64,000 nucleotides of DNA from an uncultured bacterium (GCA_903937035.1 CAIZXS010000004.1:4693-68692); one strand, 5' to 3'. Positions 10,309 to 58,646 are shown, numbered from the stretch's first letter. Numbers and translations: made by a program. The notes: a model not told the origin generated them from the sequence alone.

Positions 10309-10324
10309 CAAGTAATATGAATCT

Positions 10325-10780: not shown

Positions 10781-10790
10781 GGAAATTATC

Positions 10791-11798: not shown

Positions 11799-11809
11799 CG
11801 GACGTTTGT

Positions 11810-11918
11810 TTTCGGCGCATTTCTTCGTTAAAACCTCCGCTACTCGTTCGTCGTAGCAGTAATTACGTCTCACTCACTGCTCGATTTTGCCTCGAACTGC
11901 ACTCAAAAACAAACGTCC
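11810..11918. mobile_element. MITE-like element related to family B (109 bp, 13-bp perfect terminal inverted repeats GGACGTTTGTTTT / AAAACAAACGTCC)
   Basis: Perfect inverted termini immediately after the mreB stop. Internal hairpin gctac..gtagc. Shares GGAC..GTCC termini with family B. Confidence 0.5.
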
Positions 11919-33106: not shown

Positions 33107-34240
33107 ATGTTTGATTTTAGTTTCAAAAAAAATGTGTTTGTTGGTGTCGACATTGGAACAGCTGCTATTAAAGTAGTTGAGCTTACTGTTGTGGAGGGAA
33201 AACCGATACTTTCAAATTACGCCTGGATGTCTCTTGATGGGAATAATATTGGAAAAGGAGACGAAAACGTTGAATATTTTCAGGTTATTCTTCCGCAATG
33301 CTTAAAGAGAATCATCAAAAAGGCTAAGTTTTCAGGGCGAGATGCCTATGTTTCTTTGCCAGCTTTTGGAGGGCTCATAACACTTATTGATTTTCCCGAA
33401 ATGGCTGATAATGACATGGAGCAAGCAATCAAGTTTGAGGCGCACAAATATATTCCAACCTCACTAGATGAAGTGGTGATTAGTTGGGAGATTGTGGAGA
33501 GGGAAAATCGTTCTGCGTCTTTGATTAAAGAGATTCCTGTTTCTGGTAATTCTGGAGATGCCAAGGAGACTGATTCTGGCGTACGGGTCAAGGTTTTGCT
33601 CGTAGCTGCTTCACGAAAAAAGGTTTTGAAATATGAAAATCTAGTCAAGCTTTCTGGATTGGACTTGAAATCGATTGATATTGAAACATTTTCAGTTGTG
33701 CGCTCGCTGGTGGGTAATGATATGGGTAGTTTTGTTATTGTGGATATTGGTGCGCGAGTTTGCAATATTATCCTGGTTGAAAAAGGGGTGATTAGGATTA
33801 ATCGAAATATTGATGCGGGTGGAGCGGAAATGACCAAGACAATTGCCAAAGCCATGGGAATTGATACAGAAAGAGCAGAAGCGCTCAAGGTTTCTGGTAA
33901 GAATTTTTTTGAAACTGAATCAGCGATTAGTTTTTTCACACTTGAGCTGATTACGGGTGAAGTGGAACGAATGATTCGTGCATATTGCAAAGATGGTGAA
34001 CGGGACAAAATTGAGGAGATTATCCTTTCTGGCGGAACATCAAGGCTGACAGGTATTGAGGATTATTTTTCCAATAAGTTGAAAATAAAAACAACGGTTG
34101 GTAATCCTTTTGCACGAATCAGCTATGACAGTCGGCTGAAATCAACCATCGCAGATATTCAAAATAATCTGAATATTGCAGTAGGATTGGCATTGAAAGG
34201 TGTGGATGAATATTTGAAAGATAATTTAAATAAAAAATAG
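33107..34240 (+). CDS. pilM: type IV pilus assembly protein PilM (actin-like ATPase fold)
   Basis: VGVDIGTAAIKVVEL N-terminal actin-fold phosphate motif, DIGARVCNI second motif, 377 aa. Confidence 0.85.
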   Translation: MFDFSFKKNVFVGVDIGTAAIKVVELTVVEGKPILSNYAWMSLDGNNIGKGDENVEYFQVILPQCLKRIIKKAKFSGRDAYVSLPAFGGLITLIDFPEMADNDMEQAIKFEAHKYIPTSLDEVVISWEIVERENRSASLIKEIPVSGNSGDAKETDSGVRVKVLLVAASRKKVLKYENLVKLSGLDLKSIDIETFSVVRSLVGNDMGSFVIVDIGARVCNIILVEKGVIRINRNIDAGGAEMTKTIAKAMGIDTERAEALKVSGKNFFETESAISFFTLELITGEVERMIRAYCKDGERDKIEEIILSGGTSRLTGIEDYFSNKLKIKTTVGNPFARISYDSRLKSTIADIQNNLNIAVGLALKGVDEYLKDNLNKK

Positions 34241-34329
34241 TTAAAACAATTTAAAATATTTCGCTGAGCTTGCTTTTAAGCAGGGTCGTCTAGGATGATG
34301 GACGAATCTAGCGAAGTAGGAATAAAAAA

Positions 34330-34842
34330 ATGGCAAATATAAATTTAGTTACAGACAGAGAAAATGCGAGAATGCTTGGAACCGGCACTACAGTGCTTCT
34401 GGTAGCATTCTTTGTTGTCATACTGATTTATGGAGGACTGATTTTCTATGGAAATAAGCTGGGGACTGATTTGACAACAGCTAAGGAAGAATATGCAGCT
34501 AAATTCAATATTTTCGCTATTGGTGATTCTAAAAAAGTTTTAGATTTTCAAAGCAGATTAACAATTTCAAATGAGCTTCTTGCGACGGAACGGGACAATG
34601 GAAAGGACCTGGAAAACATTGAAAGCGTAATGATTGATGGTGTATATCTTGATTCCTATGTCTACGATGAGTCAACTAAATCAATTAAGATTGATTGCTT
34701 TGCCGACAGTTATGAAACGGTGGCAAAGCAAATTTTGAGTTTCAAGGGTGATGACTATTTCTCAACCGTACTTGCAGGCGAGACTAAGATTGATACGAGA
34801 AGAAAGATGATTAATTTCCCCGTTGTTTTAACGATTAAATAA
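34330..34842 (+). CDS. pilN: type IV pilus assembly protein PilN-like
   Basis: Short cytoplasmic N-terminus, single TM (TTVLLVAFFVVILIYGGLIFYG), periplasmic domain. Position between pilM and pilO. Confidence 0.65.
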   Translation: MANINLVTDRENARMLGTGTTVLLVAFFVVILIYGGLIFYGNKLGTDLTTAKEEYAAKFNIFAIGDSKKVLDFQSRLTISNELLATERDNGKDLENIESVMIDGVYLDSYVYDESTKSIKIDCFADSYETVAKQILSFKGDDYFSTVLAGETKIDTRRKMINFPVVLTIK

Positions 34843-34847
34843 AAAAT

Positions 34848-35639
34848 ATGAAAATAAAAATACTATTAGCTCCGGGACTAATCGTTGTTATCGTAGTTGC
34901 AATTATCTGGTATGTCTATCCGGCCTATGATGGTGTGGATGGTGTTAGAGAGAGGGGTGCGAAAATGGCAGGTCAGGAAGCGCTTATGGCTAAATTGGAT
35001 GGTAATATTAGTAACGCGGAAAAATTAGGAGCAGAATTGAGTGCTAATGCTACTCAAAATGCAGTTGTTTTTGATTATATTCCCAAGAGTAAAGAGGAGG
35101 AGAAAATTATTGAAAATCTGAACTTGCAAGCAACAGGAAGCACTTTGGCTGTATTGGAAATTTCGGTTTCCGAGTTGTCGGATGTTGCCGCTGCCGCAGA
35201 GGTTAGTACGCTTTCAATTGCGCCGCCCATTACTGATCCTGTTACAGGAGCTGTTGTGCCCGAAGCGCCAAAATTGGTGCCTAAGAAATTGAAAGTAAAG
35301 TATTCCGTTGTTGGTGATTATGCGAATATTAAAGTTTTAATAGGAAAAATCCAAAAGCTGAAAAGATTTAACAAGTTCTTGGGACTGGACATAAAAACAC
35401 TAATGACGGAAGGGCAGGAGGTAAGTAATTCCTTGCAAGCGAATATGATGCTAGAGTTTAACTATTTAAATGAACCAAAGCGACTGACCGATGCTGATTT
35501 GGGTAATGAGATTTTTTCAGCCACAGAAGGTTTTGATAAGCAGATTATTGGAAAAATACGTGAGAGTAGAAATGTTGAAGTTAATAATGTTATGCCGGGA
35601 CAAAAAAGAGGGAATAATCCTTTTATCATTACAAAATAA
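34848..35639 (+). CDS. pilO: type IV pilus assembly protein PilO-like
   Basis: N-terminal TM (LLAPGLIVVIVVAIIWYV), coiled coil plus ferredoxin-like region. Stop overlaps the pilB start (TAATG). Confidence 0.6.
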   Translation: MKIKILLAPGLIVVIVVAIIWYVYPAYDGVDGVRERGAKMAGQEALMAKLDGNISNAEKLGAELSANATQNAVVFDYIPKSKEEEKIIENLNLQATGSTLAVLEISVSELSDVAAAAEVSTLSIAPPITDPVTGAVVPEAPKLVPKKLKVKYSVVGDYANIKVLIGKIQKLKRFNKFLGLDIKTLMTEGQEVSNSLQANMMLEFNYLNEPKRLTDADLGNEIFSATEGFDKQIIGKIRESRNVEVNNVMPGQKRGNNPFIITK

Positions 35640-37303
35640 TGACTCCGAAAGATGATGATGTAAAAAAAGAAGAAGCGGTTGCTGCGGAGGGACTTCGGCA
35701 GAATATTTTGCGTGAGGCGCCGAAAACTGTTGCGGGCAGTCTTGTTAATATGCTTCCCAAGGAAGTTGCGGAGAAATATAGCATGATGGTTTTTGACAAG
35801 GTAGGAGATGTTTTGAAGGTGGCAATGGCTGATCCAGAAGATGCGCAAGCCTTGAATACTTTGAATTTTGTAGCGGAAAAAGAGAGGGCCAGAATCGAAA
35901 CTTATGCGGTTTCGCAAAAAGTATTTGCTGATTTATTTGCTTTCTATAACGAAACGAACGAAGCACTAAAGGAAGCAGTTGATTCTTTTGAAGATGAGAA
36001 GGATCAATTGGCGATTGAGGATAGTAATAATGATTCACTGGGAAAGAAGAAGGAGGCGGAAGTGTTGAAAGATGCTCCTGTTACGAAGTTGGTCGAGGTG
36101 ATCATCAGCCATGCTGTAGAGGGAAAGGCGAGTGACATCCACATTGAACCGATGGACAAGGATTATCGCGTGCGTTTTCGAGTGGACGGCGTGTTGCATG
36201 TTAGTTTGATTTTTCCAATTGAGATTGGTCCGGTGGTGATTTCTCGCATAAAGATTTTGGCTAATTTAAAAATTGATGAAAAGAGAAAACCGCAAGATGG
36301 TCGGTTCCGACTGAATTTTAACAAAAAAGATATTGACTTTCGCGTCTCATCCTTGCCTGTTGTTGGTGGAGAAAAGATTGTAATGAGAATCTTAGATAAG
36401 GATAGCGGCACAAGTAGCATTGAGAATCTTGGACTCGTGGGGATGGCAAAACATGATATTAGCGTAGCAATTCATGAGACATACGGGATGATTTTGATGA
36501 CTGGGCCGACTGGTAGTGGAAAATCAACCACGCTCTACACTCTTTTGAAAATTTTGAATAACGAGGAGCGCAATATCATCACACTGGAGGATCCGGTGGA
36601 GTATTTCATTGAAGGACTAAATCAAAGCCAGATCAAGCCGGAAATCGGCTATACTTTTGCTTCAGGTTTGCGAACTGTTTTGCGTCAAGATCCCAATGTA
36701 ATTATGGTAGGAGAAATTCGTGACGCGGAAACGGCAGAACTGGCGGTTCACGCCGCTCTCACAGGACATTTGATGTTTTCTACGTTGCATACGAACACGG
36801 CGATTGGCGCTATTCCGCGTCTAATTGACATGAAAATTGAGCCATTCTTGCTTTCTTCGTCACTTCGAATGGTGATTGCTCAACGTTTGGTGAGGCGAAT
36901 TTGTGAAAAATGCAAAAAAGAGATTACGGTTTCTCCTGTGGTCAGCGGGGGGATAGCGGAAAAAATAAAGAATATCAACGAGAAAGAATTGGAAAGCTAC
37001 GGAATAAAGTTGGAGGATGGACTTAAATTTTATCATGGCGACGGATGTGACGCTTGTAATGGAACGGGGCTCAAAGGGCGCGTGGCAATCTATGAGGCAG
37101 TGCCGGTGACAGAGGAAATTAGGAATATCATTATCGAAAAAAGAGGCAGCGAGGAATTGATCAAAAAAGAACGCGATCGGATGGGAGTGATTACAATCGA
37201 GCAAGATGGCATCTTGAAGATTATCCAAGGTCTCACAACGATCGAAGAGGTGGAACGAGTAACGGAGTGTAACTTCACAACTCTGACCGAGGAAAATGAC
37301 TAA
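35639..37303 (+). CDS. pilB: type IV pilus assembly ATPase PilB (GspE family)
   Basis: N-terminal GspII_E_N-like domain, Walker A LMTGPTGSGKSTTLYT, Asp/His boxes, C-terminal tetracysteine CEKC...CDAC. Confidence 0.95.
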   Translation: MTPKDDDVKKEEAVAAEGLRQNILREAPKTVAGSLVNMLPKEVAEKYSMMVFDKVGDVLKVAMADPEDAQALNTLNFVAEKERARIETYAVSQKVFADLFAFYNETNEALKEAVDSFEDEKDQLAIEDSNNDSLGKKKEAEVLKDAPVTKLVEVIISHAVEGKASDIHIEPMDKDYRVRFRVDGVLHVSLIFPIEIGPVVISRIKILANLKIDEKRKPQDGRFRLNFNKKDIDFRVSSLPVVGGEKIVMRILDKDSGTSSIENLGLVGMAKHDISVAIHETYGMILMTGPTGSGKSTTLYTLLKILNNEERNIITLEDPVEYFIEGLNQSQIKPEIGYTFASGLRTVLRQDPNVIMVGEIRDAETAELAVHAALTGHLMFSTLHTNTAIGAIPRLIDMKIEPFLLSSSLRMVIAQRLVRRICEKCKKEITVSPVVSGGIAEKIKNINEKELESYGIKLEDGLKFYHGDGCDACNGTGLKGRVAIYEAVPVTEEIRNIIIEKRGSEELIKKERDRMGVITIEQDGILKIIQGLTTIEEVERVTECNFTTLTEEND

Positions 37304-37332
37304 GTATATTTTTTATTTTTAATTATAATTTT

Positions 37333-37722
37333 ATGGAAGAGCAGAAAAAGAAGATCATGATTATCGAAGATGACTATTTTGTTATGGACATCTATCACAC
37401 AAAACTTACACAGTCCGGCTTTGATGTGATTAGTGCAAATAACGGACTTGACGCGTTAAAAAAGTTACAAGAAGAAAAACAAATTCCCGATTTGATTTTG
37501 CTAGACATTATCATGCCCTATCTTGGCGGATTGGAAGTTTTGGAGCGGATCAAAGCCGATGAGCAATTAAAAAGTATCCCAGTAATTTTGCTCACCAATT
37601 TGAGTCAAAAAGCTGAGATTGATAAGGGAATGGGGTTGGGAGCAAAAGATTATTTAATCAAATCTCATTTCACGCCATCAGAAGTTTTGGAAAAAATAAA
37701 TTTACTCATTGGTAATGCTTAA
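37333..37722 (+). CDS. single-domain response-regulator receiver (CheY/PilH-like) embedded between pilB and pilT
   Basis: IEDD, LLDIIMP (phosphoacceptor Asp), LLTNLS and KDYLIK are all canonical. Confidence 0.85.
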   Translation: MEEQKKKIMIIEDDYFVMDIYHTKLTQSGFDVISANNGLDALKKLQEEKQIPDLILLDIIMPYLGGLEVLERIKADEQLKSIPVILLTNLSQKAEIDKGMGLGAKDYLIKSHFTPSEVLEKINLLIGNA

Positions 37723-37728
37723 ACATTT

Positions 37729-38799
37729 ATGTTACGAACTGAACAAAAAATAAAAAATTTGCTAAGAATTGCCGCGCAACGCGGGGCTTCAGATTTACAT
37801 TTGGTGGTTGGTCGCTATCCGACCTATCGAATTGACGGAAAACTCATCTCGCTCAATCAAGATGAGATTATTACGCCTGAGGTTACGCGTGAAATTTGCG
37901 ATGTTGTTTTGAATGAAGAGAAAAAAAAGCAACTGGAAAAGGAAGGGCAAGTTGACCTGTCCTATAATTTTGAAGACAAGGTGCGTTTTCGTGTCAATGC
38001 TTTTTTTCAACAGGGCTATACGAGCATGGCATTTCGTCTGATTTCCAAAGATATCCGGACACTAGAGGAATTGGGTGTACCAGAAATTCTTTATGATTTC
38101 ACCAGAGTTTCCCAAGGATTATTTTTAATGGTGGGGCCGGTGGGACATGGAAAGTCGACGACGCTAGCAGCCATGATTGATGACATTAATCATAACCAAG
38201 AAAAGCATATTTTGACCATTGAAGATCCAATCGAATATGTCTATGAACAAGATCGTTCAATCATCAATCAAAGAGAGGTCTACCAGGATACGAATTCTTT
38301 TCAATTGGCACTTAAGGGGCTGTTTCGGGAAGATGCCAATGTGGTGCTTATTGGTGAGCTGCGAGACCTGGACACGATTTCTGCGGCAATGACGGCTGCT
38401 GAAACAGGGCATTTGATTTTTGGGACACTTCACACTAATGATGCTCCGCAAACTATTGATCGGATCGTAGATGTCTTTCCGGCTCATCAGCAAAATCAAG
38501 TTAGAGCGCAATTGGCCAGCGTGCTTTTGGCCGTTGTCTCTCAGCGCTTGATTCCCAGAGTTGATGAGGGTCGGTCTCCAGCGGTCGAGATTATGATTAA
38601 AAATCACGCGGTGGAAAACTTGATTCGAGAGAATAAAAGTTATCAAATCGGCAATGTGATTGAAACAAGTTCACAAGAGGGGATGGTGACAATGGACCGT
38701 TCACTGGCAGATTTAGTTAGGCGGGGCTTGGTTTCACTTGAAATTGCTTCGGCCTATGCAAGGGACACAAAAAATTTCGAAACGCTGCTCAGATACTAG
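37729..38799 (+). CDS. pilT: twitching-motility/retraction ATPase PilT
   Basis: LMVGPVGHGKSTTLAAMI Walker A, 356 aa, lacks the GspE N-domain. Confidence 0.9.
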   Translation: MLRTEQKIKNLLRIAAQRGASDLHLVVGRYPTYRIDGKLISLNQDEIITPEVTREICDVVLNEEKKKQLEKEGQVDLSYNFEDKVRFRVNAFFQQGYTSMAFRLISKDIRTLEELGVPEILYDFTRVSQGLFLMVGPVGHGKSTTLAAMIDDINHNQEKHILTIEDPIEYVYEQDRSIINQREVYQDTNSFQLALKGLFREDANVVLIGELRDLDTISAAMTAAETGHLIFGTLHTNDAPQTIDRIVDVFPAHQQNQVRAQLASVLLAVVSQRLIPRVDEGRSPAVEIMIKNHAVENLIRENKSYQIGNVIETSSQEGMVTMDRSLADLVRRGLVSLEIASAYARDTKNFETLLRY

Positions 38800-38836
38800 T
38801 TGGAAATTTGCTAAATTTTCTATTTATTTGAAATGA

Positions 38837-38845
38837 TGGTATAAT
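38837..38845 (+). promoter_or_regulatory. extended -10 promoter TGGTATAAT upstream of pilC
   Basis: tttgaaatgatggtataataaaa. Internal promoter within the pilus cluster. Confidence 0.4.
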
Positions 38846-38905
38846 AAAAAAGTTGTAGAGTTGGAAATTTTGAAAAAATAAAAAAAATGATTGAGGGTGA
38901 AAAAT

Positions 38906-40114
38906 ATGAAATTTAAGTTTAAGGCTAAAACAAAAACCGGAGAAGTGAGCACTGGCTACATCAGCGCTGCTAGTCGCGATTTAGCTGCGGCTATTTTGCA
39001 AAAAAATGAACTTTTTCCAATCAGTCTCGAAGAAGAAGTGGGAAATTCAGTTAAGAAGGTGGTTGCTCAATATTTTGACAAAGTCACAAGCAAAGAATTG
39101 GTGATCTTTTTTCGACAATTGGCAATTTTGATTGAAGCAAGGGTGCCGATTGTGGTGGCTCTCACAGCTATTGGCGAGCAAACAACGAGCAGTTTTTTGA
39201 AAATCATTTTGGCTGAAGCGATGAAAGACATTGAGGATGGCGTTCCACTATCTGATGCTTTTGCGAAACATAAGGAAGTTTTTTCTGATTTGGTTATTAA
39301 TATTATAAAAGCCGGTGAAGCCTCGGGAAATTTGAAAAAATCGGTGGAATATGTGGCGGATAATATTGAGAAAAACTATAATCTGACCAACAAAGTGAAA
39401 TCGGCCATGCTCTATCCGGCAATAATTATGATAGTGTTTTTCATTATTGGTTTTTTAGTGATTACGCTTATTATCCCTAAACTTACAGTAATGATTAAGG
39501 AACTAGATGCAGCTGTTCCTTGGTATACGAATGTGCTCATCAAAACCGGAGATTTCATGGTGAACTATTGGTGGGCAGTGCTTGTGCTTATTTTTGGCTT
39601 CATTGCCGGTATCGCCTATTATCTGAATACGCCAGAGGGGAAAAAAGAATGGGACCAGATAAAATTAAAGTTACCAATCATGGGAACGCTGTTTCGCTAT
39701 GTCTATATTACAAGATTTTCTGAAAACTTAGCCGTGCTCTTAGCTGGTGGTATTCCGATTATTAAGGCACTCACGATTGTGAGCGCGGTGATTGGAAATT
39801 CGGCTTACGAGGAATTACTTTTGCGCACGGCGGAAAATGTGAAAAGAGGGGAGACAATGAGTGATATTTTGCGCAGAAGCCCACTTTTCCCACCGATGGT
39901 TTCGCATATGATCAAGATTGGTGAAGATTCCGGTCAGGTTGATGCGGTGCTTGGACATATCACCAAATTTTACAGTCAAGAAGTGGAACTGATGGCAAAA
40001 AACATGTCCACATTGATTGAACCGGTTTTAATGATTATGATTGGGCTCGGTGTCGGCTTTATGGCTGTGGGAGTTCTCATGCCGATATATAATATTGCGG
40101 GACAGATAAAATAG
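38906..40114 (+). CDS. pilC: type IV pilus inner-membrane platform protein PilC (GspF family)
   Basis: Two T2SSF repeats and three TMs. Start set at ATG 38906, with gaggg SD 10 nt upstream; the track's 38891 start is a TTG extension. Confidence 0.9.
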   Translation: MKFKFKAKTKTGEVSTGYISAASRDLAAAILQKNELFPISLEEEVGNSVKKVVAQYFDKVTSKELVIFFRQLAILIEARVPIVVALTAIGEQTTSSFLKIILAEAMKDIEDGVPLSDAFAKHKEVFSDLVINIIKAGEASGNLKKSVEYVADNIEKNYNLTNKVKSAMLYPAIIMIVFFIIGFLVITLIIPKLTVMIKELDAAVPWYTNVLIKTGDFMVNYWWAVLVLIFGFIAGIAYYLNTPEGKKEWDQIKLKLPIMGTLFRYVYITRFSENLAVLLAGGIPIIKALTIVSAVIGNSAYEELLLRTAENVKRGETMSDILRRSPLFPPMVSHMIKIGEDSGQVDAVLGHITKFYSQEVELMAKNMSTLIEPVLMIMIGLGVGFMAVGVLMPIYNIAGQIK

Positions 40115-40148
40115 AAAAAATTTTAAAAACTAGAAAGGCGGGTGAAAT

Positions 40149-40544
40149 ATGAAAAATAAAAACAAAAAAGGTTTTACGCTGATTGAACTTTTGATCGTGA
40201 TTGCGATTATCGGAATTTTGGCTTCAATTGTGCTCGTTAGTTTGAATAGTGCGAGAACTAAGGCTAAATATGCTTCATTTGAGGCATCGGTTTCGTCTAT
40301 AAAGGGTGTGGCGGTTGTATGTGTTGATGGCGGAGGAGCTCCTAGCACTGCAGCCGCGGGAGCAGCAATTTGCGATGATACTGCAATTACGGACGCTGTT
40401 TATCCAACTTTGCCAATTGGATGTACTAGCGCGGGAGATTTTACTGTAGGCGGAAGTGGTGATGATTGGACAATTACTCAATCATGCGATGCAACGTGTT
40501 CCGGTGTTTGCAGTTCTACTGGTTGCGTTTACACTGGATGCTAG
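40149..40544 (+). CDS. type IV major pilin (prepilin, class III signal peptide)
   Basis: MKNKNKKGFTLIELLIVIAIIGILASIV has G/FTLIE with Glu+5. Cys-rich C-terminal domain (8 Cys). Confidence 0.9.
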   Translation: MKNKNKKGFTLIELLIVIAIIGILASIVLVSLNSARTKAKYASFEASVSSIKGVAVVCVDGGGAPSTAAAGAAICDDTAITDAVYPTLPIGCTSAGDFTVGGSGDDWTITQSCDATCSGVCSSTGCVYTGC

Positions 40545-40611
40545 GGTTATGAAAAATAATGATGGATATGTAATATAAAAAATTTATATAACTAGAAGGA
40601 GAGGTGAATTT

Positions 40612-41067
40612 ATGAAAAATAAAAAATTAAAAGGTTTTACACTGATTGAGCTTTTGATCGTAATCGCGATCATCGGAATTTTGGCTTCGATTGTGTTGGT
40701 TAGTTTGAATGCAGCTAGAGCGAAAGCAAAATCGGCAGCGTTTAAGGCTGGTCTATCCAGTATGATGCCCGCCCTTGCTATGTGTGAGGATATCGGAAGT
40801 ACGGTTACTACTCCGACCGTAGCGAGTCTTACATCTGGAACCGTTAACGTTTGTGCTGGTATTACTACGTCAAAAGTTCCCATGTTGATACCTAAGACAT
40901 GCTCTACTATCGCCGCTGCGAGTATCGTTGGTACTGGTATTGGCGCTGCAGATGCAACTAATTCTGATGGCCTATATTCATTAAGTATGATATGTAATGT
41001 TGGAACAGGAACTGTTTCTGCTGCTTGTACCGAGGCTGGATGTACATATACTGAAGTCGGACTATAG
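40612..41067 (+). CDS. type IV pilin paralog 2
   Basis: MKNKKLKGFTLIELLIVIAIIGILASIVLVSLNAAR is near-identical at the N-terminus to the upstream pilin. Divergent C-terminal domain. Confidence 0.9.
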   Translation: MKNKKLKGFTLIELLIVIAIIGILASIVLVSLNAARAKAKSAAFKAGLSSMMPALAMCEDIGSTVTTPTVASLTSGTVNVCAGITTSKVPMLIPKTCSTIAAASIVGTGIGAADATNSDGLYSLSMICNVGTGTVSAACTEAGCTYTEVGL

Positions 41068-43845: not shown

Positions 43846-43865
43846 TTTATTAAAACTTCCTGTGT

Positions 43866-45600: not shown

Positions 45601-45622
45601 GAAAGTGATGATTCGCACGTAG

Positions 45623-48653: not shown

Positions 48654-48728
48654 AGAATGATCGAATTATGCTATACTGAAGATATTGTTTAGCTTATATG
48701 TAATTAGTCTATCAACTCTGTCGCTTTT

Positions 48729-49520
48729 ATGCAAAATAATACAATCGATATCGAGGTATGCGAGGGTTTGGTTGTGAAAAGAACTATTAAAGAAATCATC
48801 TCCGAGAGAATGAATCCGCGAATATGGCAGTGGGCATATTTAAGCCTTCGGGCGTTGCTTAGGGAAGTGAAGATTTTTTCCGGGATGCTTGAGCGAGAGA
48901 GAGCTGAAAAAATTCTTGATCTGGGCTGTGGGGTGAAGCCGTACCGGTCTCTATTCCCAGAGGTAAAAGCGTATGTTGGTTTCGACGTTAGCAAGAATAG
49001 TAGTGCAGATTTTTTTGGGTATAACTGGGACCTTCCTTTTGGTGAGAGCGAATTCGATGCTCTGATTTCGACTCAAGTATTGGAGCATACATCAAAAATA
49101 TCTGAGACTATCAAGGAAATTGGGCGGGTTGTGAAAAATGATGGGCTGATTTTTATTTCGGCGCCGCTGGCCTTTCCTGAACATGAAATTCCTCATGATT
49201 ATTATCGGTTTACTCAATATGGGCTCAGGGAGTTGTTTAAAGGTTTCGAGGTGATTCGGATTGTTCCGCTTAGTGGTTACATTAAAACTCTCATAATTCT
49301 TTGGAATAATTTTTTGCATTATTTACCAGGATCAAAATATTGGCTTTCCCCCCTTTTTATTATTAATAATTTATTGGCTCTTGTGATTGACAATGTTGCT
49401 TTATTGGTCTCGTCTATGTCGTCCAAAATGAGCGGTGGGGCAGTTATTAAGGAAATTTATGCCAAGTATTATGCTAGCTTCACTGAAAGTTATGTGATTG
49501 TCTTGAGAAATAAAAAATAA
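48729..49520 (+). CDS. class I SAM-dependent methyltransferase with C-terminal TM
   Basis: ILDLGCGVKPY motif I, FISAPLAFPE motif, C-terminal hydrophobic segment. Confidence 0.75.
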   Translation: MQNNTIDIEVCEGLVVKRTIKEIISERMNPRIWQWAYLSLRALLREVKIFSGMLERERAEKILDLGCGVKPYRSLFPEVKAYVGFDVSKNSSADFFGYNWDLPFGESEFDALISTQVLEHTSKISETIKEIGRVVKNDGLIFISAPLAFPEHEIPHDYYRFTQYGLRELFKGFEVIRIVPLSGYIKTLIILWNNFLHYLPGSKYWLSPLFIINNLLALVIDNVALLVSSMSSKMSGGAVIKEIYAKYYASFTESYVIVLRNKK

Positions 49521-49666: not shown

Positions 49667-50452
49667 ATGCTTATCATTTTTTTTCTTTTTGGTCTGATTA
49701 TTGGCAGTTTTCTCAATGTCGTTGTTTATCGTATTCGCACGGCAGAAACAATAATGGGGCGCTCCCATTGTCGGCAATGCAAAAAAACTATCCGTTGGTA
49801 TGATAATATCCCGGTTTTGAGTTTTGTCCTTTTGAAATTTAAATGTCGTGATTGTGGGGAAAAGATTTCTTGGCAATATCCTTTGGTGGAGTTGCTCACG
49901 GGCGTTGTTTTTGCGCTTTTGGCAAATCAATACTTTATTCTAGAAAATCCTGTTACCTGGCTTATCACTGGTGTGATGATTGCTCTTGCTAGCGCGCTCT
50001 TGGTAATTTTCATCTACGACATATTATACATGGAGATTCCCAATTTAGTTCTTTGGCCAGCGATCATTTTGGCTTTGATTTTCAATCTCTACCTTGATTT
50101 TGGACAAATATTTTCAACTGTCTGGGAGCGAATGTCAGTTTCTGGGGTTATGGCTAGCGGAGGCGCATTTTTGTTTTTTTTCTCCTTGTCCTATTTTTCA
50201 AAAGAAAAATGGATGGGAATGGGTGATGCTTATCTCGTGATCCTGCTCGGGCTCATTTTGGGTTGGCCGAAAATTCTTCTGGGACTTTTTCTGGCTTTTG
50301 CGATTGGTGCTATTTATGGTATAATTCTTATTGGAATGAAGAAGAAAGATATGAAGAGTCAGCTTCCCTTTGCTCCATTTTTAATTGTCGGAACATTTTT
50401 TGCTCTTTTTTACTATGCTCCAATTGTGGGCTGGTATCTGGGCTTATTTTAG
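49667..50452 (+). CDS. pilD: prepilin peptidase (A24 family)
   Basis: N-terminal GSFLNVVVYRI, tetracysteine CRQC...CRDC, polytopic, conserved Asp-containing GMGDAYL. Confidence 0.9.
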   Translation: MLIIFFLFGLIIGSFLNVVVYRIRTAETIMGRSHCRQCKKTIRWYDNIPVLSFVLLKFKCRDCGEKISWQYPLVELLTGVVFALLANQYFILENPVTWLITGVMIALASALLVIFIYDILYMEIPNLVLWPAIILALIFNLYLDFGQIFSTVWERMSVSGVMASGGAFLFFFSLSYFSKEKWMGMGDAYLVILLGLILGWPKILLGLFLAFAIGAIYGIILIGMKKKDMKSQLPFAPFLIVGTFFALFYYAPIVGWYLGLF

Positions 50453-50464
50453 TACCACTTTTGT

Positions 50465-50980
50465 ATGTCTGATAATTTATTTTCAAAAAAAGAAGTGACA
50501 CCTGGAGACGAGCCTACCTGTGACGCGGTTGTTTCGGGCAATCAAGGATTTACAGTCTTAGAGCTGATTGTGATTATCGCTGTTGTGGCTATAATCACAG
50601 GAATGTCTTGGAGTGCGCTGAGCGGTATGAAAAATAGGGCAAGTGTGAATAACGCTTGTGGTCAGGTATCGGCAATGATTAATAAGACGCGGAACTATGC
50701 TTTGTCTGGGAAAATGGTTAGTGGAAGCGTTCCCGTTTCTTTTGCGATTATTATAAATGGATCTATAATTCAGATATCATCAAGTGCTGGTGGAACAATG
50801 GAATCATTTAGTATCCCCGGTGGTGTGAATTGTGCTTCTCCGGCATGGTCAGCTACATATACCACTCCTAATGCTATTGGCGCTCTCCCTGGTGGTGTTG
50901 CAACCTCGACTATCACTTGTTCTGGTTATGGAGGAAGTCGAAATATCGAAGTTACTCCTTATCAGGCAATATGCAAATAG
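50465..50980 (+). CDS. minor pilin / pseudopilin (prepilin-type N-terminus)
   Basis: GFTVLELIVIIAVVAIITGM class III signal with Glu+5. The long leader suggests the real start may be internal. Confidence 0.75.
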   Translation: MSDNLFSKKEVTPGDEPTCDAVVSGNQGFTVLELIVIIAVVAIITGMSWSALSGMKNRASVNNACGQVSAMINKTRNYALSGKMVSGSVPVSFAIIINGSIIQISSSAGGTMESFSIPGGVNCASPAWSATYTTPNAIGALPGGVATSTITCSGYGGSRNIEVTPYQAICK

Positions 50981-51112
50981 TTTTTTTGTTTGAATCCTCC
51001 TGCGCTGAAGCTTCGGCGGACGAGCTAATATTGAGTAAATTTTCTGTGGCTTGCCACAAATAAAGTACAGAACTCTCCCTGTGGTTAATGCCCTTAATTA
51101 AAAAAAGATAAA

Positions 51113-51703
51113 ATGCGAAAACGAGTTTTGGAAAATAAAAAAAACAAGTCTGCCTGCCCGAAGTTGCTACATCGTTGCAGTCGGGGCTATATGTTGATTG
51201 AGGCAGTGATCGCTACTTTCATTGTGGGAATTGTGCTTGTCACATTTTTGACTGTAATGGCGGCTTCATATCGTACGGAATTTTCCAAGCGAGATATTAT
51301 CATCGCTTCAAATTTGGCTCAGGAGGGGATTGAAATCGTTAGGAATATCCGGGATAATAATTGGAAAACTTGTGTCGTTGGCAATATACCTCCGTGTAAT
51401 GATGGGTTTCAGAGTCCTCCTTTTCCTGCTCCTGCTTCTGCAAATCTTTGTAATATTGCGTATAATTATAATTATAGTGGTGCCACAATGCCAGTGGCTG
51501 GTTGCGCCGAGACTGGACTAAGAAAGAGTGGTGATTTTTATACAATTGGCGGTGGTGGGACGGTGACAAAATTTTATAGAACAGTTAGTATTTCTGGAGC
51601 TGGTGAATCCAGAACGATAACTAGTCGGATAAGATGGGGCACTACTAGTGATAAGATTCTGACTATGACTGATACTATTTATTCATGGGGAAATACAGAA
51701 TAA
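51113..51703 (+). CDS. minor pilin / pseudopilin
   Basis: GYMLIEAVIATFIVGIVLV prepilin motif. Confidence 0.75.
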   Translation: MRKRVLENKKNKSACPKLLHRCSRGYMLIEAVIATFIVGIVLVTFLTVMAASYRTEFSKRDIIIASNLAQEGIEIVRNIRDNNWKTCVVGNIPPCNDGFQSPPFPAPASANLCNIAYNYNYSGATMPVAGCAETGLRKSGDFYTIGGGGTVTKFYRTVSISGAGESRTITSRIRWGTTSDKILTMTDTIYSWGNTE

Positions 51704-52287
51704 TGCAAAAAACTAAAATGAAAAATATTTCAAATAAAAACAAAAAATACTCTGCTGTTTGTAACGCCAAAGCTTTGATTGAGCCTGCAGGAAGACGAGG
51801 GTTGACTTTTATTGAGATGCTCATCGCGATTGCAATCATGAGTATTTTGACCATGGCGATTGTGGCGGTCACTATTTCTTACCTCAATAATCGCACGGCA
51901 GTTAAGCGATATCAGGCAAATAATGAAGAATTGTCGCTAGCTTTGAATTCTTTGGCGAAAGATATTCGTATGAGCGATTTTGCACCAGCACCAGCACCAG
52001 CACCAGTGCTTGGCAGTGCCATAAATAATATCTATTTAAAAAATAATGCTACTGGCAGTGCGGTAACATATATATTCGATCCTGCAGCTAGAACCCTATC
52101 GAGAGCTGAGACTCCAACAGCAGGAGCGTCAACGAACTATGTGATTGCGAGCGATGTCGCGGGAAATTTTTATGTGAGAGGAACTCCGATTGGCAGGATT
52201 ACGACGGTGCTTGTGAAGGTCGGGCCTCCGGGGATGACGGCGCAGACGACTGTTTCAATGCGAGCTAAGTATAAGGATGAAAATTAA
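51685..52287 (+). CDS. minor pilin / pseudopilin with APAPAPAP linker
   Basis: GLTFIEMLIAIAIMSIL prepilin motif. Contains (GCACCA)4 encoding APAPAPAP. Start probably internal (MQKTKMK). Confidence 0.75.
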   Translation: MGKYRIMQKTKMKNISNKNKKYSAVCNAKALIEPAGRRGLTFIEMLIAIAIMSILTMAIVAVTISYLNNRTAVKRYQANNEELSLALNSLAKDIRMSDFAPAPAPAPVLGSAINNIYLKNNATGSAVTYIFDPAARTLSRAETPTAGASTNYVIASDVAGNFYVRGTPIGRITTVLVKVGPPGMTAQTTVSMRAKYKDEN

Positions 52288-52316
52288 GAAGATTTTTAGC
52301 AATAATTTTTGAAAAA

Positions 52317-55187
52317 ATGAAGATTCAAAAAAACAAACGAGGAAGTTTCATGATTGGGGTTCTAATCATGCTTTTGGTGATTTCAGCGATTTCAATTGCG
52401 ATTGTCAACCGCGCAATTCAAGGAACGACCCTTGCGCTTGATTCCAAAAAAGGCTATAGCGCCTATCAGGCTTCAGACGCTGCTGCAGAATTATTTTTGA
52501 ATAATCTGAAGGCATTGGACAATGAGCTGACCGCAAGAATTCCCGAAAACGCGCGTTACAATGAAGCGGGTTTTTGTGATGGGACTACTATAAAATGTTT
52601 TGATGCAACCTCTCCTGTGCCATCGCAAGTCACCGCTGGCTATCTCTCGGAAGTATATAAGCTCCAAAGTCAAAGCGTGGATGGTAGTGGTGGTTTAAAT
52701 CGTAAGATTCAAGCGGACTTAAGTGATCGGATCAATAGTGGATTGGGAAGTGGTAATTTTACTGTAGCAAATTGTGGGGATGGCGTCGCTCCTTGCACAT
52801 GGAATAAGTGTGATATAAAGCTGACCGTCAATCCCAATGCTGACGCAGCTGTAGTGAAAAAAATTAAAGATTATGAAGTGAGAAAGTCAATGCAGGGAAG
52901 TTTGAGGGCTGATTATACTATTCCCGGTAATGGCTGGTGGATAACAACGAATAGGGATGCTTTCGATGTATTTGTTCCGTTCAGATTATCTGCCACAACG
53001 CCTAATATAATACTTAAAAACGGAGATGAGAAAATTAGTGGAGCGCTTTTTGGTTCTCCTGGCTCATTGGCTAATTCTGGGGGGCAATATGGTGAGGATT
53101 ATTTTTTCACAATCAAAGCGCGAAATAAATATCCATTGAGCCTTGATTCGCTTTATTTGGATACGAGTGGAACTGGAGTCGGAACAACAGATAAGAAGGT
53201 GACGATTTCGACCTTTGATTGTGACACAGGCGATCTTTTAGGTGGACTTAAATGTGTCAAGCTCTGTACTAGCCCCGGGCAAGTTAATTGTCAACCGGTG
53301 GGAACCATAACAGCGACACAATCATATAATTGCTGTAATGGCACCGAGTGTTTTCAGCCTGATCCTAATTGGACGCCAGAACCAGGAGAAAATTGTGCAT
53401 TGCAAAAATGTGTTAACAGAGAGGGCTATTTAACACCTTCTTCTACTCCTTATCCAAGCGTTACTGATACTGTGGGAATTGGTTTCGCTGCTGGTAGTGG
53501 GGTGGTATCAGGGCTTAATGAAGGTATTACTACCGGTCTTGGTTGGTGTAAAACAGCGCAGGCTTGTGTGCCTGGAGATGCTTGCTTGCATCCATATCGA
53601 ACGGTAGGGTATTGCTTGACTTGTCCCACGGCAGCTGAAGGTTCTGATCCATCAATAAAACTCAATTCTAGTTCATGGTCGCCACAGAATAAAATAGATG
53701 TTGATATGAATCCGGCAAATGGTCGTTATAATGGAGTGTTATTTACCTCTTATCATACAACTGAGTCAAATCCATCACAACCCCGATGTTGCAAGCAGGA
53801 ATGCCCAGTTCCGTCTGGTTCGCCAACTACGATTGTGGAATCTCCAGACACATATTGCGCGCTGAATCCTTTTAAGAAGGCTACTTGGGATACTCATGAT
53901 ACGACTTGCGCAAATACTAATAATTGTGGGCCATATACTATAACAAAGAGATGTGAATTAACGTGTGCGGCAAATTATAATCCTTTTATCGAGGCTGCTG
54001 ACCCTGAATATCCGAGTGGTAAATGTTGTTCTGAAACTTGTTCTTCTGCAGCAAACCCTCCATTTGTATCGCATGATAATGCGCCGACTGTTACGGAGGG
54101 AGATTGTGATTATGAATTAGATCCCTATCATGGAACGAGTTGGACCAATACTAGTACTTGTGCGTCTGATACAAAATGTGCAGCAGCGGGTGTTCCTGGG
54201 TATACCGTTACGGAGCGTTGTAGCTTAGTTTGCGATTATGATTTTGTAAAATATGGCGTTACGAATGCTGATCATTTTGTTGCTCCTAACAAGGCTTGCT
54301 GTTATCATAAATGCTCGGACTGGACTGAACCAGCTTGTACCCAGGCTATCCCGGAGCATAGTACTCGTATTGGCAAATATTCCTGTACTCCTCAAAGTTG
54401 TGGGGATTATGTTATAACTAATAACTGTGACTTTCTGTGTGATTATAACTATACTCGTTCAGGTTCAAGCTGTGTTCCTAATACTCGATCTGCGAGTTGC
54501 TCCTCTCAGCCTTCAAATACCGTCTGGAATACCACTTCAACATTTACTCAGACATGGAACGGGCATACGGCTGCATGGGAGCCTGCCACTAAGACTGCTG
54601 TGTATGATATAAATCCGACGGTAGGTGACTGTCATGTTAGGTGTGCGACCAATTATACTTGGGATGGCTGGAATTGTATTGGCAATACCCAAACATATAC
54701 GTGCTCTGCATCTAAACCTAGTAACACAGTCTGGAACCCATCTTCCTATGCTCAAACTTGGTATGGATATTGGAGTCCTGCTGCTGACCCTTGGCCGAGA
54801 TATAGCGTACCAGCATGTAGTGGTGAATGTTGTTATAAGTGCGCGTCGGGGTATACTTGGGATACATGGAATAGTATTTGTGCTTCAAGTACGCCTACGT
54901 GCACATATAGTTGGAATCCTACAACTATCACTACGAGTCAAGGCGTGACGTATACTTGGACATCTACAGTTGCGCTGGGACTAAAATCTGAGTGCTTTAA
55001 GAAGGTTAGTGGCGCATGGTCATCGCTTGGCGTCCCTGCGCCTATGGGCGCTCTTTCCGGGAGTGGATATATTCCCCCTGCCACACTTGGTGTTGGTTCA
55101 TATTATTGCCGCATGGACGCGTATTTAGATGCTGTATATAATTCATATGCTACGAGTTGTTATACTCAAGAATTAATTGTTAACTAG
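52317..55187 (+). CDS. large Cys-rich pilin-like protein (GspK/PilX-like N-terminus lacking Glu+5; candidate pilus-tip adhesin)
   Basis: 956 aa. N-terminus KRGSFMIGVLIMLLVISAISIAIV is pilin-like with Gly at +5. C-terminal ~600 aa has >60 Cys in repeated Trp/Thr-rich modules (SNTVWN..TW.G.W, C..Y.IT..C.L.C.YN). Confidence 0.75.
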   Translation: MKIQKNKRGSFMIGVLIMLLVISAISIAIVNRAIQGTTLALDSKKGYSAYQASDAAAELFLNNLKALDNELTARIPENARYNEAGFCDGTTIKCFDATSPVPSQVTAGYLSEVYKLQSQSVDGSGGLNRKIQADLSDRINSGLGSGNFTVANCGDGVAPCTWNKCDIKLTVNPNADAAVVKKIKDYEVRKSMQGSLRADYTIPGNGWWITTNRDAFDVFVPFRLSATTPNIILKNGDEKISGALFGSPGSLANSGGQYGEDYFFTIKARNKYPLSLDSLYLDTSGTGVGTTDKKVTISTFDCDTGDLLGGLKCVKLCTSPGQVNCQPVGTITATQSYNCCNGTECFQPDPNWTPEPGENCALQKCVNREGYLTPSSTPYPSVTDTVGIGFAAGSGVVSGLNEGITTGLGWCKTAQACVPGDACLHPYRTVGYCLTCPTAAEGSDPSIKLNSSSWSPQNKIDVDMNPANGRYNGVLFTSYHTTESNPSQPRCCKQECPVPSGSPTTIVESPDTYCALNPFKKATWDTHDTTCANTNNCGPYTITKRCELTCAANYNPFIEAADPEYPSGKCCSETCSSAANPPFVSHDNAPTVTEGDCDYELDPYHGTSWTNTSTCASDTKCAAAGVPGYTVTERCSLVCDYDFVKYGVTNADHFVAPNKACCYHKCSDWTEPACTQAIPEHSTRIGKYSCTPQSCGDYVITNNCDFLCDYNYTRSGSSCVPNTRSASCSSQPSNTVWNTTSTFTQTWNGHTAAWEPATKTAVYDINPTVGDCHVRCATNYTWDGWNCIGNTQTYTCSASKPSNTVWNPSSYAQTWYGYWSPAADPWPRYSVPACSGECCYKCASGYTWDTWNSICASSTPTCTYSWNPTTITTSQGVTYTWTSTVALGLKSECFKKVSGAWSSLGVPAPMGALSGSGYIPPATLGVGSYYCRMDAYLDAVYNSYATSCYTQELIVN

Positions 55188-55229
55188 CTAGTTTTAAGTT
55201 AAATTTATTTTTTCTATTAAATTATAAAA

Positions 55230-56450
55230 ATGATACAAATTAAATCAAATCAAAAATTACTTGCTTTCATCGGGTTATTTTTGGTTTTTGCTTTGGTGCT
55301 AACTGGATTATTTGAGCTTAAAAAAGGGATTTTATTTGGAGGCGGGAATAGTCGCGAGAAGGGGAACGGCATTGTTTTTACAAAGGATGTTTCTTTCGTG
55401 CGTTTTATTGACAATGAGCCGCACCTGATTAGTGATGGAAAAGATGTTGGAGGATTGGCTAATCGATATTTTGAGTTTTCCAATGGAAGACTGGTTTTTG
55501 AAAGAGATGTTGACGGCGAGAATCACGTTTTTTTTAACGGAAAAGACGTTGGCGTGGGTTTTAGACCGATGATCTCAGCTGATAATCTGGCTTTTTATCG
55601 TAAAATTGGTGATGACACTCACCTGATTTATAATGACATTGACTTGGGAGTTGTTTTTGCTGCAGAAGGCCATTACTCAGCTAGGATTGCTGGTAGCAAT
55701 ATTGCTTATGAGAAGCTAATTGATGGAGTGGTTCATGTTATCTATAACGACAAAGACTTGGGTGATGGACATAGCTTTGTTTTATCGGAAGATGGAAATG
55801 ATATTGCGTTTGAACGCGATAGCGATAAAGGTAGCGTGGTTATTTATAAGGGAAATATTTTTGCTCCCGGTGGCCTGATTTATGCCGTGAGTAATGATTC
55901 GGTTTGGTATGCATCAGCTGCAGCTTCTTCTATTTTTTCTTCGACCCATGCTAATGGTATTATTGGTCTGTCGGGTATTTCAAAAAATAGTGAAAGGATA
56001 GGCGAAGGCATCGGTTTTAGTTGTCTTGAAAAAAAATGTGCCTATCAAGCAATTGTGGAGGGTAAGCTGCATTTCATCTATGACGGAAAAGATTTTGGTG
56101 AAATCTGGAACACGGGCAATGCCTTTGGGATTGCAAAAAACAATTTCTTCTTCATGCGATTAAATGAGGCTGGGGAGATCATCGTTGTGCATAATGGAAA
56201 AGAATTGGGCGTTGGCTCTGATCCGGTGATTGGGGGCGAAGGCTTTGCTTATGTCAAAATGGTGAGTGGTAAAAAGCATGTGATTTATAATGAAAAAGAT
56301 TTAGGTGAAGGGGCTAAGCCGATTATTTCTGCTGATGGGAAGAGTATCGCTTTTGTGCGAGAGGTTGATGGGAAAAAACATGCCTTCGTGGGAACGGATG
56401 ATTTAGGTGAAATTGGCGGCGATGAGCTTATTTTGAAGTTTTCTAATTAG
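55230..56450 (+). CDS. secreted repeat protein (8-9 copies of a ~40-aa H[VLF]IYN.KD[LV]G module; beta-propeller-like)
   Basis: Signal/TM LLAFIGLFLVFALVLTGLF. Repeats HLISDGKDVG, HVFFNGKDVG, HLIYNDIDLG, HVIYNDKDLG, HFIYDGKDFG, IVVHNGKELG, HVIYNEKDLG. Confidence 0.75.
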   Translation: MIQIKSNQKLLAFIGLFLVFALVLTGLFELKKGILFGGGNSREKGNGIVFTKDVSFVRFIDNEPHLISDGKDVGGLANRYFEFSNGRLVFERDVDGENHVFFNGKDVGVGFRPMISADNLAFYRKIGDDTHLIYNDIDLGVVFAAEGHYSARIAGSNIAYEKLIDGVVHVIYNDKDLGDGHSFVLSEDGNDIAFERDSDKGSVVIYKGNIFAPGGLIYAVSNDSVWYASAAASSIFSSTHANGIIGLSGISKNSERIGEGIGFSCLEKKCAYQAIVEGKLHFIYDGKDFGEIWNTGNAFGIAKNNFFFMRLNEAGEIIVVHNGKELGVGSDPVIGGEGFAYVKMVSGKKHVIYNEKDLGEGAKPIISADGKSIAFVREVDGKKHAFVGTDDLGEIGGDELILKFSN

Positions 56451-56474
56451 AAATTGATTGATAGTCCACAGTAA

Positions 56475-58646
<2,172 letters not shown>

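Follow-up and report, generated by a model that had tools for sequence, protein, structure and literature searches.

A candidate cap pilin without Glu5 and with a Cys-rich modular extension in a type IV pilus locus of Moraniibacteriota

Results

The minor-pilin operon and its last gene

The 64,000-nucleotide stretch of DNA analysed here (the window; uncultured bacterium, GCA_903937035.1, CAIZXS010000004.1:4693-68692) carries a complete set of type IV pilus genes on the plus strand, made up of pilMNO, pilB, pilT, pilC, the major pilin, pilD and three minor pilins. The subject of this work is the gene that starts 29 nt after the third minor pilin and encodes a protein of 956 residues (the target), a candidate modular minor pilin without Glu5. 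The reading frame reported by the initial annotation, which was made from the sequence alone, is present in the list of open reading frames (ORFs). The target is the last pilin-like gene after pilD, which lies four genes upstream, and the three minor pilins, and it does occupy the distal end of the minor-pilin operon as first described. No convincing terminator-like hairpin was found in the intergenic gaps from pilD through the gene downstream of the target; the best hairpin (56474-56501) lies 3' of that downstream gene. This gene order matches that of an H-I-J-K minor-pilin operon, in which the target takes the K slot (Table 1). The fourth slot of known systems encodes a cap subunit lacking Glu5 [GspK, PilK or ComGG (PMC10191384)].

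The target contains 58 Cys (6.1%) and 23 Trp (2.4%), and Thr, Ser, Gly and Asn are abundant. At the mean Cys content of the 31 other proteins of the window (1.29%) only 12.3 Cys are expected, an excess with a binomial P of 1.5e-21. Five Cys lie before residue 300 and 53 after it, with 46 in the last 600 residues; the figure of more than 60 given at first for the C-terminal ~600 residues was an overcount. Minor pilins 1 and 2 are moderately Cys-rich too [2.9% (5 Cys) and 3.1% (6 Cys)], which suggests that disulphides are a general feature of the tip complex.

Table 1. Features of the target gene and of the type IV pilus genes in the window (a slash marks the predicted cleavage site).
Feature	Coordinates	Strand	Evidence
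Whole gene, 956 aa, stop codon included; candidate modular minor pilin without Glu5	52317..55187	+	ORF list, composition, family alignment A1
Putative class III (prepilin) leader MKIQKNKRG, last residue Gly(-1)	52317..52343	+	Length and charge similar to major pilin leader; Gly(-1) in 31/31 relatives
Hydrophobic alpha1-N segment SFMIGVLIMLLVISAISIAIV, Ser +1, Gly +5	52344..52406	+	Hydropathy; AlphaFold2 (AF2) helix
Conserved N-terminal 'pilin-like' module, residues 1-300	52317..53216	+	Alignments A1, A2; AF2; occurs alone as 240-370 aa proteins elsewhere
Conserved Cys-rich domain, residues 301-489, signature YNCCNGTEC	53217..53783	+	Alignments A1, A2
Module A copy 1, residues 490-557	53784..53987	+	Hidden Markov model (HMM) domain E = 4.8e-22; alignment A3
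Module A copy 2, residues 569-645	54021..54251	+	HMM domain E = 7.4e-21
Module A copy 3, residues 660-714	54294..54458	+	HMM domain E = 1.2e-17
Module B copy 1, residues 719-784	54471..54668	+	HMM domain E = 4e-20; AF2 predicted local distance difference test (pLDDT) >90, all-beta
Module B copy 2, residues 787-849/855	54675..54881	+	HMM domain E = 1.4e-12; 51% identity with copy 1
Distal C-terminal immunoglobulin (Ig)/PKD-like beta-sandwich, residues 857-956	54885..55184	+	AF2 pLDDT ~65-88; weak Ig-V and PKD-like Foldseek matches; fastest-evolving part
pilM (start 33107), pilN (34330), pilO (34848), extension ATPase pilB (35639), retraction ATPase pilT (37729), pilC (38891), major pilin	33107..41067	+	Pfam PilM_2, PilN, PilO, T2SSE (twice), T2SSF, N_methyl
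Major pilin, MKNKKLKG/FTLIE	40612-41067	+	N_methyl; canonical N-terminus
Prepilin peptidase PilD	49667..50452	+	Pfam A24_N_bact 1.4e-33, Peptidase_A24 1e-13
Minor pilin 1 (GspH/ComGD-like), G/FTVLE	50465..50980	+	Weak matches to N_methyl, NCBIfam gspG/gspH/ComGD
Minor pilin 2 (PilV/ComGE-like), G/YMLIE	51113..51703	+	NCBIfam ComGE 9.4e-5, PilV 0.0049
Minor pilin 3 (GspJ/ComGF-like), G/LTFIE	51685..52287	+	N_methyl 2.4e-6, NCBIfam gspJ 4.2e-6

The N-terminus is prepilin-like and lacks Glu5

The target starts MKIQKNKRG/SFMIGVLIMLLVISAISIAIV; with cleavage after Gly9, residue +1 is Ser and residue +5 is Gly. In length and charge the leader is close to that of the major pilin (MKNKKLKG). The predicted cleavage site is followed by ~20 hydrophobic residues (11-30) and the top 19-residue hydropathy window scores 2.97, compared with 2.6-3.2 in the neighbouring pilins. 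The start of Escherichia coli GspK, MNNEQRG/VALLIVL, is of the same style.

The prepilin-like start with Gly instead of Glu at +5, noted at first for the target, proves to be family-wide. All 31 relatives with an intact N-terminus have Gly(-1) and a short basic leader; position +1 is Ser in 29, Thr in one and Ala in one, and position +5 is Gly in 30 and Pro in the other. Glu at +5, a usual feature of type IV pilins, is absent from the target and from every one of these 31 sequences, and its loss is a known hallmark of the cap subunit (PMC10191384). A class III signal needs conservation of this kind, which goes beyond the needs of a plain membrane anchor.

A family restricted to Moraniibacteriota and tied to pilus genes

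The initial annotation could name no recognisable homologue, which is incorrect; there are ~40 relatives, all unannotated and all from Moraniibacteriota or from unclassified metagenome-assembled genomes (MAGs). A word-index search returned 19 of 567-956 residues, the named ones being entries for 'hypothetical protein' from Candidatus Moraniibacteriota MAGs, an exhaustive HMMER search added further relatives, and the N-terminal domain is present in 42 of the sequences collected. A scan of one genome per GTDB species gave 10 loci, again all from Moraniibacteriota or unclassified MAGs. None of the relatives in the N-terminal family is annotated with a function, and a literature search on Moranbacteria pili gave nothing specific.

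Seventeen related loci (L001-L017) were retrieved; one begins inside the gene neighbourhood, leaving 16 with upstream DNA. The order pilD, H-like, I-like, J-like, family member is found in 16 of these 16, the members being 30-81% identical to the target. The initial annotation had made its proposal depend on whether the protein is related to pilus genes in other genomes, and the synteny links it to them in every locus in which upstream DNA is available.

The gene order continues downstream, with pilD and the minor pilins followed by ligA-gatC-gatA across the lineage (window 49667-58646, L001-L017), and ligA is a handy anchor for finding the pilus locus in fragmented MAGs. In L003 the target homologue is followed by a second full set of four small pilin-like genes (9825-11902), the last of which encodes a protein of 143 residues that lacks Glu5.

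Domain architecture

In alignment A1 the ~490 N-terminal residues are conserved and the alignment breaks down beyond them. The conserved part consists of two domains. In residues 1-300 (alignments A1 and A2) the invariant positions include Y47, Y50, Q51, D54, E58, IPEN (75-78), C87/C94, C153/C160/C165 and LDSLY (276-280), and in the Cys-rich domain (301-489) Cys 302, 313, 339, 340, 345, 360, 365, 411, 417, 423 and 433 are invariant or near-invariant. The remainder of the protein is built of three A modules, two B modules and the distal Ig-like domain. The A modules start with CCxxxC, end with G.Y.[IV]T..C...C and are 25-28% identical to one another with their Cys kept; both B modules contain PSNTVWN. 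These copies are found by HMMs and by pairwise alignments and are not reported by a BLASTP self-comparison. The repeated Cys/Trp modules described at first are thus real, while the exact motif strings given for them fit approximately only.

Among the proteins examined, module A is confined to the family of the target. Module B is a widespread Cys/Trp repeat of ~65 residues (consensus CVAATRTAECTGLPANAEWNTVSSITQTWNGSEWLPSTTGEYNETASTTECRFKCKENYTWNG) with 970 copies across 148 of the proteins examined and up to 42 copies in one protein; the profile search gave 399 representatives at E<=1e-3, many owing to module B. Its carriers include a 4790-residue protein with six Lcl_C (DUF1566) domains, an SBBP beta-propeller protein and further proteins with lipoprotein signal peptides, one of them from Paludibacteraceae. 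Because other carriers have lipoprotein signals, Lcl_C or SBBP domains, module B is taken to be an extracellular repeat. The tail of the consensus, CxFxCxxxYxWxGxxC, is weakly EGF-like.

A three-copy module B consensus made from 837 related repeats scores 42.3 bits against DUF5874 (PF19202; cut-off 27.1) and P0022, a protein with 18 module B copies, scores 56.7 bits (gathering threshold 27.1). The two copies of the target itself reach no Pfam threshold, that of DUF5874 included, in scans of the whole protein or of the isolated C-terminal segment. Judged by these profile scores module B is related to DUF5874, and it is a generic extracellular repeat that the pilin family of the target has recruited. 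Repeats of the DUF5874 type otherwise occur in 10-42 copies in large bacterial surface proteins with lipoprotein signals, Lcl_C or SBBP domains, whereas in the target they are attached to a pilin-like module. A literature search on DUF5874 gave nothing specific. At least three domains of the target, namely the N-module, the Cys-rich domain and module A, have no Pfam entry.

The AF2 model of residues 704-956 (41-sequence alignment) is confidently all-beta (pLDDT 88, and >90 across both B modules). In a Foldseek search of this model against the PDB, matches were weak and confined to the final ~110 residues, which resembled Ig-V-like sandwiches (E ~1.5e-3, TM-score ~0.5), and a search against BFVD matched PKD/Ig-like phage proteins (E >= 2e-4). 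Module B has no structural neighbour in the PDB or BFVD at E<=1e-3.

Module number and sequence divergence

A comparison of module number across genomes, proposed in the initial annotation, reveals variation. The N-module occurs alone as proteins of 240-370 residues (L017, L007, L006, L013). By HMM domain counts, longer members add 0-3 A modules and 0-4 B modules, and the terminal Ig-like domain is found only in the closest relatives. At least some of the short forms are complete genes; the 351-residue P0160 (L007) has another gene after it, and in L017 the sole family form (262 residues) lies directly before ligA. Four genomes (L005, L006, L007, L013) have short (240-370 residues, few Cys) and long (640-800 residues, Cys-rich) forms as tandem paralogues.

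Identity to the closest relative, P0002, is 96% over the leader and alpha1, ~80% in the middle of the protein, 66% in the second B module and 46% in the terminal domain; identity to P0003 falls from 90% (alpha1) to 31% (distal domain). The part predicted to lie farthest from the filament evolves fastest, as would be expected of an exposed, ligand-binding tip, with relaxed constraint as an alternative cause.

Neighbouring genes

Forty-two nucleotides downstream of the target, a gene at 55230-56450(+) encodes a 406-residue protein that has a hydrophobic helix at its N-terminus and a beta-propeller repeat of the PD40 type (Pfam 3.6e-6). A PD40-repeat gene occupies the same position in L006, L008 and L009. 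The two genes may share a transcript, and the 406-residue protein may be a partner associated with the pilus.

A second giant Cys-rich protein (1358 residues, 65 Cys, 4.8%) is encoded at 28399-32475(+), immediately upstream of pilM. It has a Sec-type signal peptide (...VTA/AEPS), an internal hydrophobic segment near residue 450 and repeated Ig-like domains (TPTCT.SFS...TW.SSNAD...ETCTFTPY) that are weakly similar to the terminal domain of the target (BLASTP E 0.018-0.025); Pfam has no match to it. We rejected the idea that the target is a paralogue of this protein, as only the Ig-like domains are similar, and weakly so (E ~0.02).

Between the major pilin and pilD lie ~8.3 kb (41233-49520) with a GC content of 36-38%, against 40-43% in the flanks. 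This segment encodes a 565-residue protein of no assigned family and GT2 glycosyltransferase(s) (Pfam, at 42931); by eye, other ORFs resemble methyltransferases, another glycosyltransferase and asparagine synthase. In L001, L003, L005 and L006 pilD directly follows the pilins. The segment is probably an inserted glycosylation island, possibly for glycosylation of the pilin.

Discussion

A probable fourth core minor pilin

We consider it probable that the target is the fourth 'core' minor pilin in the type IV pilus of an ultrasmall bacterium of the Moraniibacteriota [Candidate Phyla Radiation (CPR)/Patescibacteria], a counterpart in position and function of GspK, PilK/PilX and ComGG, with a long modular stalk that probably serves as the adhesin of the pilus tip. 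The start of the protein is prepilin-like without Glu5, its gene holds the fourth slot in the operon, and the number of its modules and the identity along its length vary in the manner described above. The target has the make-up of a modular pilin, an N-terminal module with extra modules outside the pilin fold, where the pilin nature of the N-module is based on motif and synteny, not on IPR012902.

A number of sequence and structure comparisons weigh against this assignment, as does one feature of the family. N_methyl (PF07963/TIGR02532), which is matched by minor pilins 1 and 3 and by the major pilin, does not match the target at E<=1. PilX_N (PF14341) and T2SSK (PF03934) do not match it either, and 13 family members have no Pfam match at E<=10. 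Searched as a profile against the sequences of all PDB chains, the N-domain alignment had 0 matches, and hhalign finds no similarity between the A2 family profile and GspK of E. coli K-12 (probability 0.45%). The AF2 model of residues 1-490 (13 sequences) is weak (pLDDT 58), and its Foldseek search gave, for the N-domain, only marginal matches to tandem FN3/Ig-like domains, with neither a pilin nor a GspK fold among them. At residues 35-46 the predicted N-terminal helix is broken, whereas alpha1 of classical pilins is continuous. Because short and long paralogues occur together in some genomes, the long form, rich in Cys, may not be the essential cap but an accessory or alternative subunit. 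The only recurrent match is to NCBIfam ComGG_2 (NF041014), with 12.8-16.3 bits (E 0.011-0.14), below the curated cut-off of 40 bits.

The low-confidence model of the N-domain has helices at residues 5-34 and 47-68, then moderate-confidence beta strands to residue ~300, and the Cys-rich domain (301-489) is essentially unmodelled. Because the pLDDT of this model is only 58, we regard the FN3/Ig matches it produced as uninformative. The ComGG_2 match, although sub-threshold, is in register (residues ~5-65 on profile positions 1-60) and is found in the target, in four of the 13 family members and in all three proteins of a second scan (two short forms and the 143-residue pilin of L003). The last of these, itself without Glu5, gives E 0.03 with ComGG_2 and, by hhalign with family residues 4-64, E 0.0011 at a probability of only 21%. 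These signals hint at common ancestry of the alpha1 region, not at family membership. No significant family emerged when the whole protein, 13 N-domains of the family and isolated C-terminal segments were scanned with Pfam and NCBIfam.

The initial annotation had likened the target to tip pseudopilins of the GspK/PilX type. The likeness holds for position and N-terminus, and membership by sequence in GspK, PilX_N or ComGG does not. The target is better said to 'work like' a cap pilin of the GspK/PilK/ComGG type than to be 'a GspK'. Current pilin models miss the whole class of cap subunits seen here.

Comparison with known systems

The target resembles GspK/PulK [type II secretion system], PilK/PilX [type IVa pili (T4aP)] and ComGG in that it comes fourth after H-, I- and J-type minor pilins, has a basic leader ending in Gly and lacks Glu at +5 (PMC10191384), and for all of them the expected location is the top of the tip complex. 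It differs from GspK, PilK and ComGG in having no significant sequence match to them, in the absence of a large helical insertion (the GspK alpha-domain) from the AF2 model of residues 1-490, itself of low confidence, in being three times larger with 58 Cys, and in that its extra modules are C-terminal and not inserted.

Modular pilins, in which further modules are grafted onto a pilin module, are widespread and occur in CPR phyla [Raynaud et al. 2021 (PMC8179133)]. PilB (vWA) and PilC (lectin) of Streptococcus sanguinis and CofB/TcpB of type IVb pili have, like the target, a small pilin module with a bulky C-terminal graft (PMC8179133, PMC9934059); their size fits the tip only, and their role is adhesion or ligand binding, as is proposed for the target. 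These proteins have a canonical class III signal known to IPR012902, which does not recognise the family of the target, and their grafts are vWA, lectin or beta-repeat domains, whereas those of the target are novel Cys-rich repeats.

The closest analogues are PilX1 and PilX2 of Nanosynbacter lyticus TM7x (Saccharibacteria), which are the largest pilins of their loci and have C-terminal accessory domains and non-canonical signal peptides; PilX2 was found by experiment to be needed for efficient host binding (PMC11623550). They and the target are CPR proteins, each the largest pilin-like protein of a type IV pilus locus, with an N-terminal lollipop/helix module, one or more C-terminal accessory domains, a signal that is not GFxxxE and a proposed function as tip adhesin. 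The accessory domains of the TM7x proteins are beta-jelly-roll lectin-like or a seven-bladed RCC1 propeller, whereas the target has an array of A and B modules, putatively disulphide-rich, and a predicted Ig-like domain. The phylum is different as well, the target belonging to Moraniibacteriota, and the likeness is one of architecture; no similarity in sequence was seen, though no search aimed at it was made.

PilY1/PilC, the non-pilin tip adhesin of T4aP, is likewise large, encoded at the end of the minor-pilin operon, tip-associated and adhesive. It is not a pilin but a protein with a Sec signal, a vWA domain and a beta-propeller at its C-terminus, whereas the target itself carries a pilin-like N-terminus. 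No domain of PilY1 or Neisseria PilC (vWA, beta-propeller PF05567) has a Pfam match in the target at E<=1. Homology to PilY1 was rejected, there being neither vWA nor propeller domain and the C-terminal model consisting of small beta modules and an Ig-like sandwich.

Proposed mechanism

The mechanism that we propose starts with removal of the nine-residue basic leader, which PilD would cut after Gly9. The hydrophobic alpha1-N helix would then join the three Glu5-bearing minor pilins encoded upstream in a priming complex. Glu5 normally neutralises the N-terminus of the subunit above. The target, because it lacks Glu5 and is too bulky for the shaft, would cap the complex and, from its top, be carried to the distal tip of the filament. 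Onto a pilin-like core of ~300 residues are grafted the Cys-rich domain (signature NCCNGTEC), the three A modules, the two B repeats and the terminal Ig-like domain; the A and B modules would form a disulphide-braced stalk outside the cell, and the distal Ig-like domain, possibly with the B repeats, would bind a ligand on a host cell or a surface. Cleavage by PilD, incorporation at the tip, disulphide bonding and the role as an adhesin are suggested by analogy with PilX2 of TM7x (PMC11623550) and with PilB and PilC of S. sanguinis (PMC8179133, PMC9934059).

More tentatively, the cap pilin (the role of PilX, GspK or ComGG) and the large tip adhesin (the role of PilY1) might have merged in one polypeptide, with the swappable, disulphide-rich modules and the fast-evolving distal Ig-like domain as the host-range determinant through which Moraniibacteriota episymbionts recognise their hosts; genomes that have both forms in tandem could alternate between a short 'plain cap' and a long 'adhesin cap'. 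We regard this as a possibility, and a somewhat doubtful one.

Alternative explanations

The target could instead be a bitopic surface protein, its N-terminal segment an uncleaved signal anchor in the cytoplasmic membrane, which stays outside the filament and acts as a factor associated with the pilus (for instance a sensor, or a platform for assembly or priming) or as a surface adhesin of the ordinary kind. The lack of a match to any pilin HMM and an N-domain fold that is not demonstrably pilin-like are in accordance with such a protein; for PilX1 and PilX2 of TM7x SignalP gave no PilD signal (PMC11623550). In 31 of 31 relatives, however, the leader is short and basic, Gly is at -1 and residue +1 is small, a strict conservation that a plain anchor would not require. 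The gene invariably comes fourth in the minor-pilin series, right after pilD and the other three, and the pilin set of the window would otherwise be missing its Glu5-less subunit. We consider this arrangement unlikely.

A tip subunit of a DNA-uptake (Com-like) or secretion pseudopilus, in which the Cys-rich modules are a rigid spacer or a receptor for DNA or cargo and not a host adhesin, would explain why the sole recurrent model match, sub-threshold as it is, is to ComGG. DNA uptake has been proposed for CPR pili, and an essential pilin of TM7x adjoins recA (PMC11623550). The locus, however, has pilT and pilMNO, genes that retractile pili of the T4aP-like kind typically have, and module B is carried by lipoproteins of the cell surface and by adhesin-like proteins that contain Lcl_C or SBBP domains. 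The fast-diverging distal domain suits variable ligands better than DNA, and no DNA-binding motif was found. We hold such a function to be distinctly improbable.

It is very improbable that the target is a PilY1-like non-pilin adhesin secreted through Sec, with a type I signal peptide and a mature protein docked non-covalently on the minor-pilin complex, for although its 956 residues and end-of-operon position recall PilY1 and a small-x-small site (ISA/I, residues 22-24) lies within the hydrophobic stretch, this stretch (~20 residues, conserved to residue 30) would be a long h-region by Sec standards, the mature protein would start with hydrophobic residues if it were cut at ISA, the Sec-type protein encoded at 28399 in the same window looks quite different (ending ...VTA/AEPS), Pfam detects no PilY1 domain in it and the operon would be left without a Glu5-less cap subunit.

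Implications

Large modular tip pilins are already known, with a CPR precedent that has experimental support, and the concept is not new. What is new is an unannotated family restricted to Moraniibacteriota that has a recognisable signature, three domains outside Pfam and an unusually long Cys-rich array, together with clear evidence that modules have been gained and lost and that short and long paralogues occur in pairs. Module B, a widespread repeat, is now linked to DUF5874. With ~650 extra residues and 53 Cys, the target takes the grafting of modules onto a pilin to an extreme.

The lifestyle ascribed to CPR/Patescibacteria is one of attachment to host microbes, and no surface appendage of theirs is more conserved than the type IV pilus. 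To our knowledge tip pilins have so far been studied only in Saccharibacteria. A second CPR lineage now gains a concrete candidate for a host-binding tip subunit, recognisable by its [KR]xG-S-x-L-[IV]-G N-terminus, by the IPEN, LDSLY and NCCNGTEC motifs and by the fixed place of its gene downstream of pilD and three minor pilins. Where in this protein ligand specificity may reside is indicated by the way in which module number varies and by the steep fall in identity towards the distal domain.

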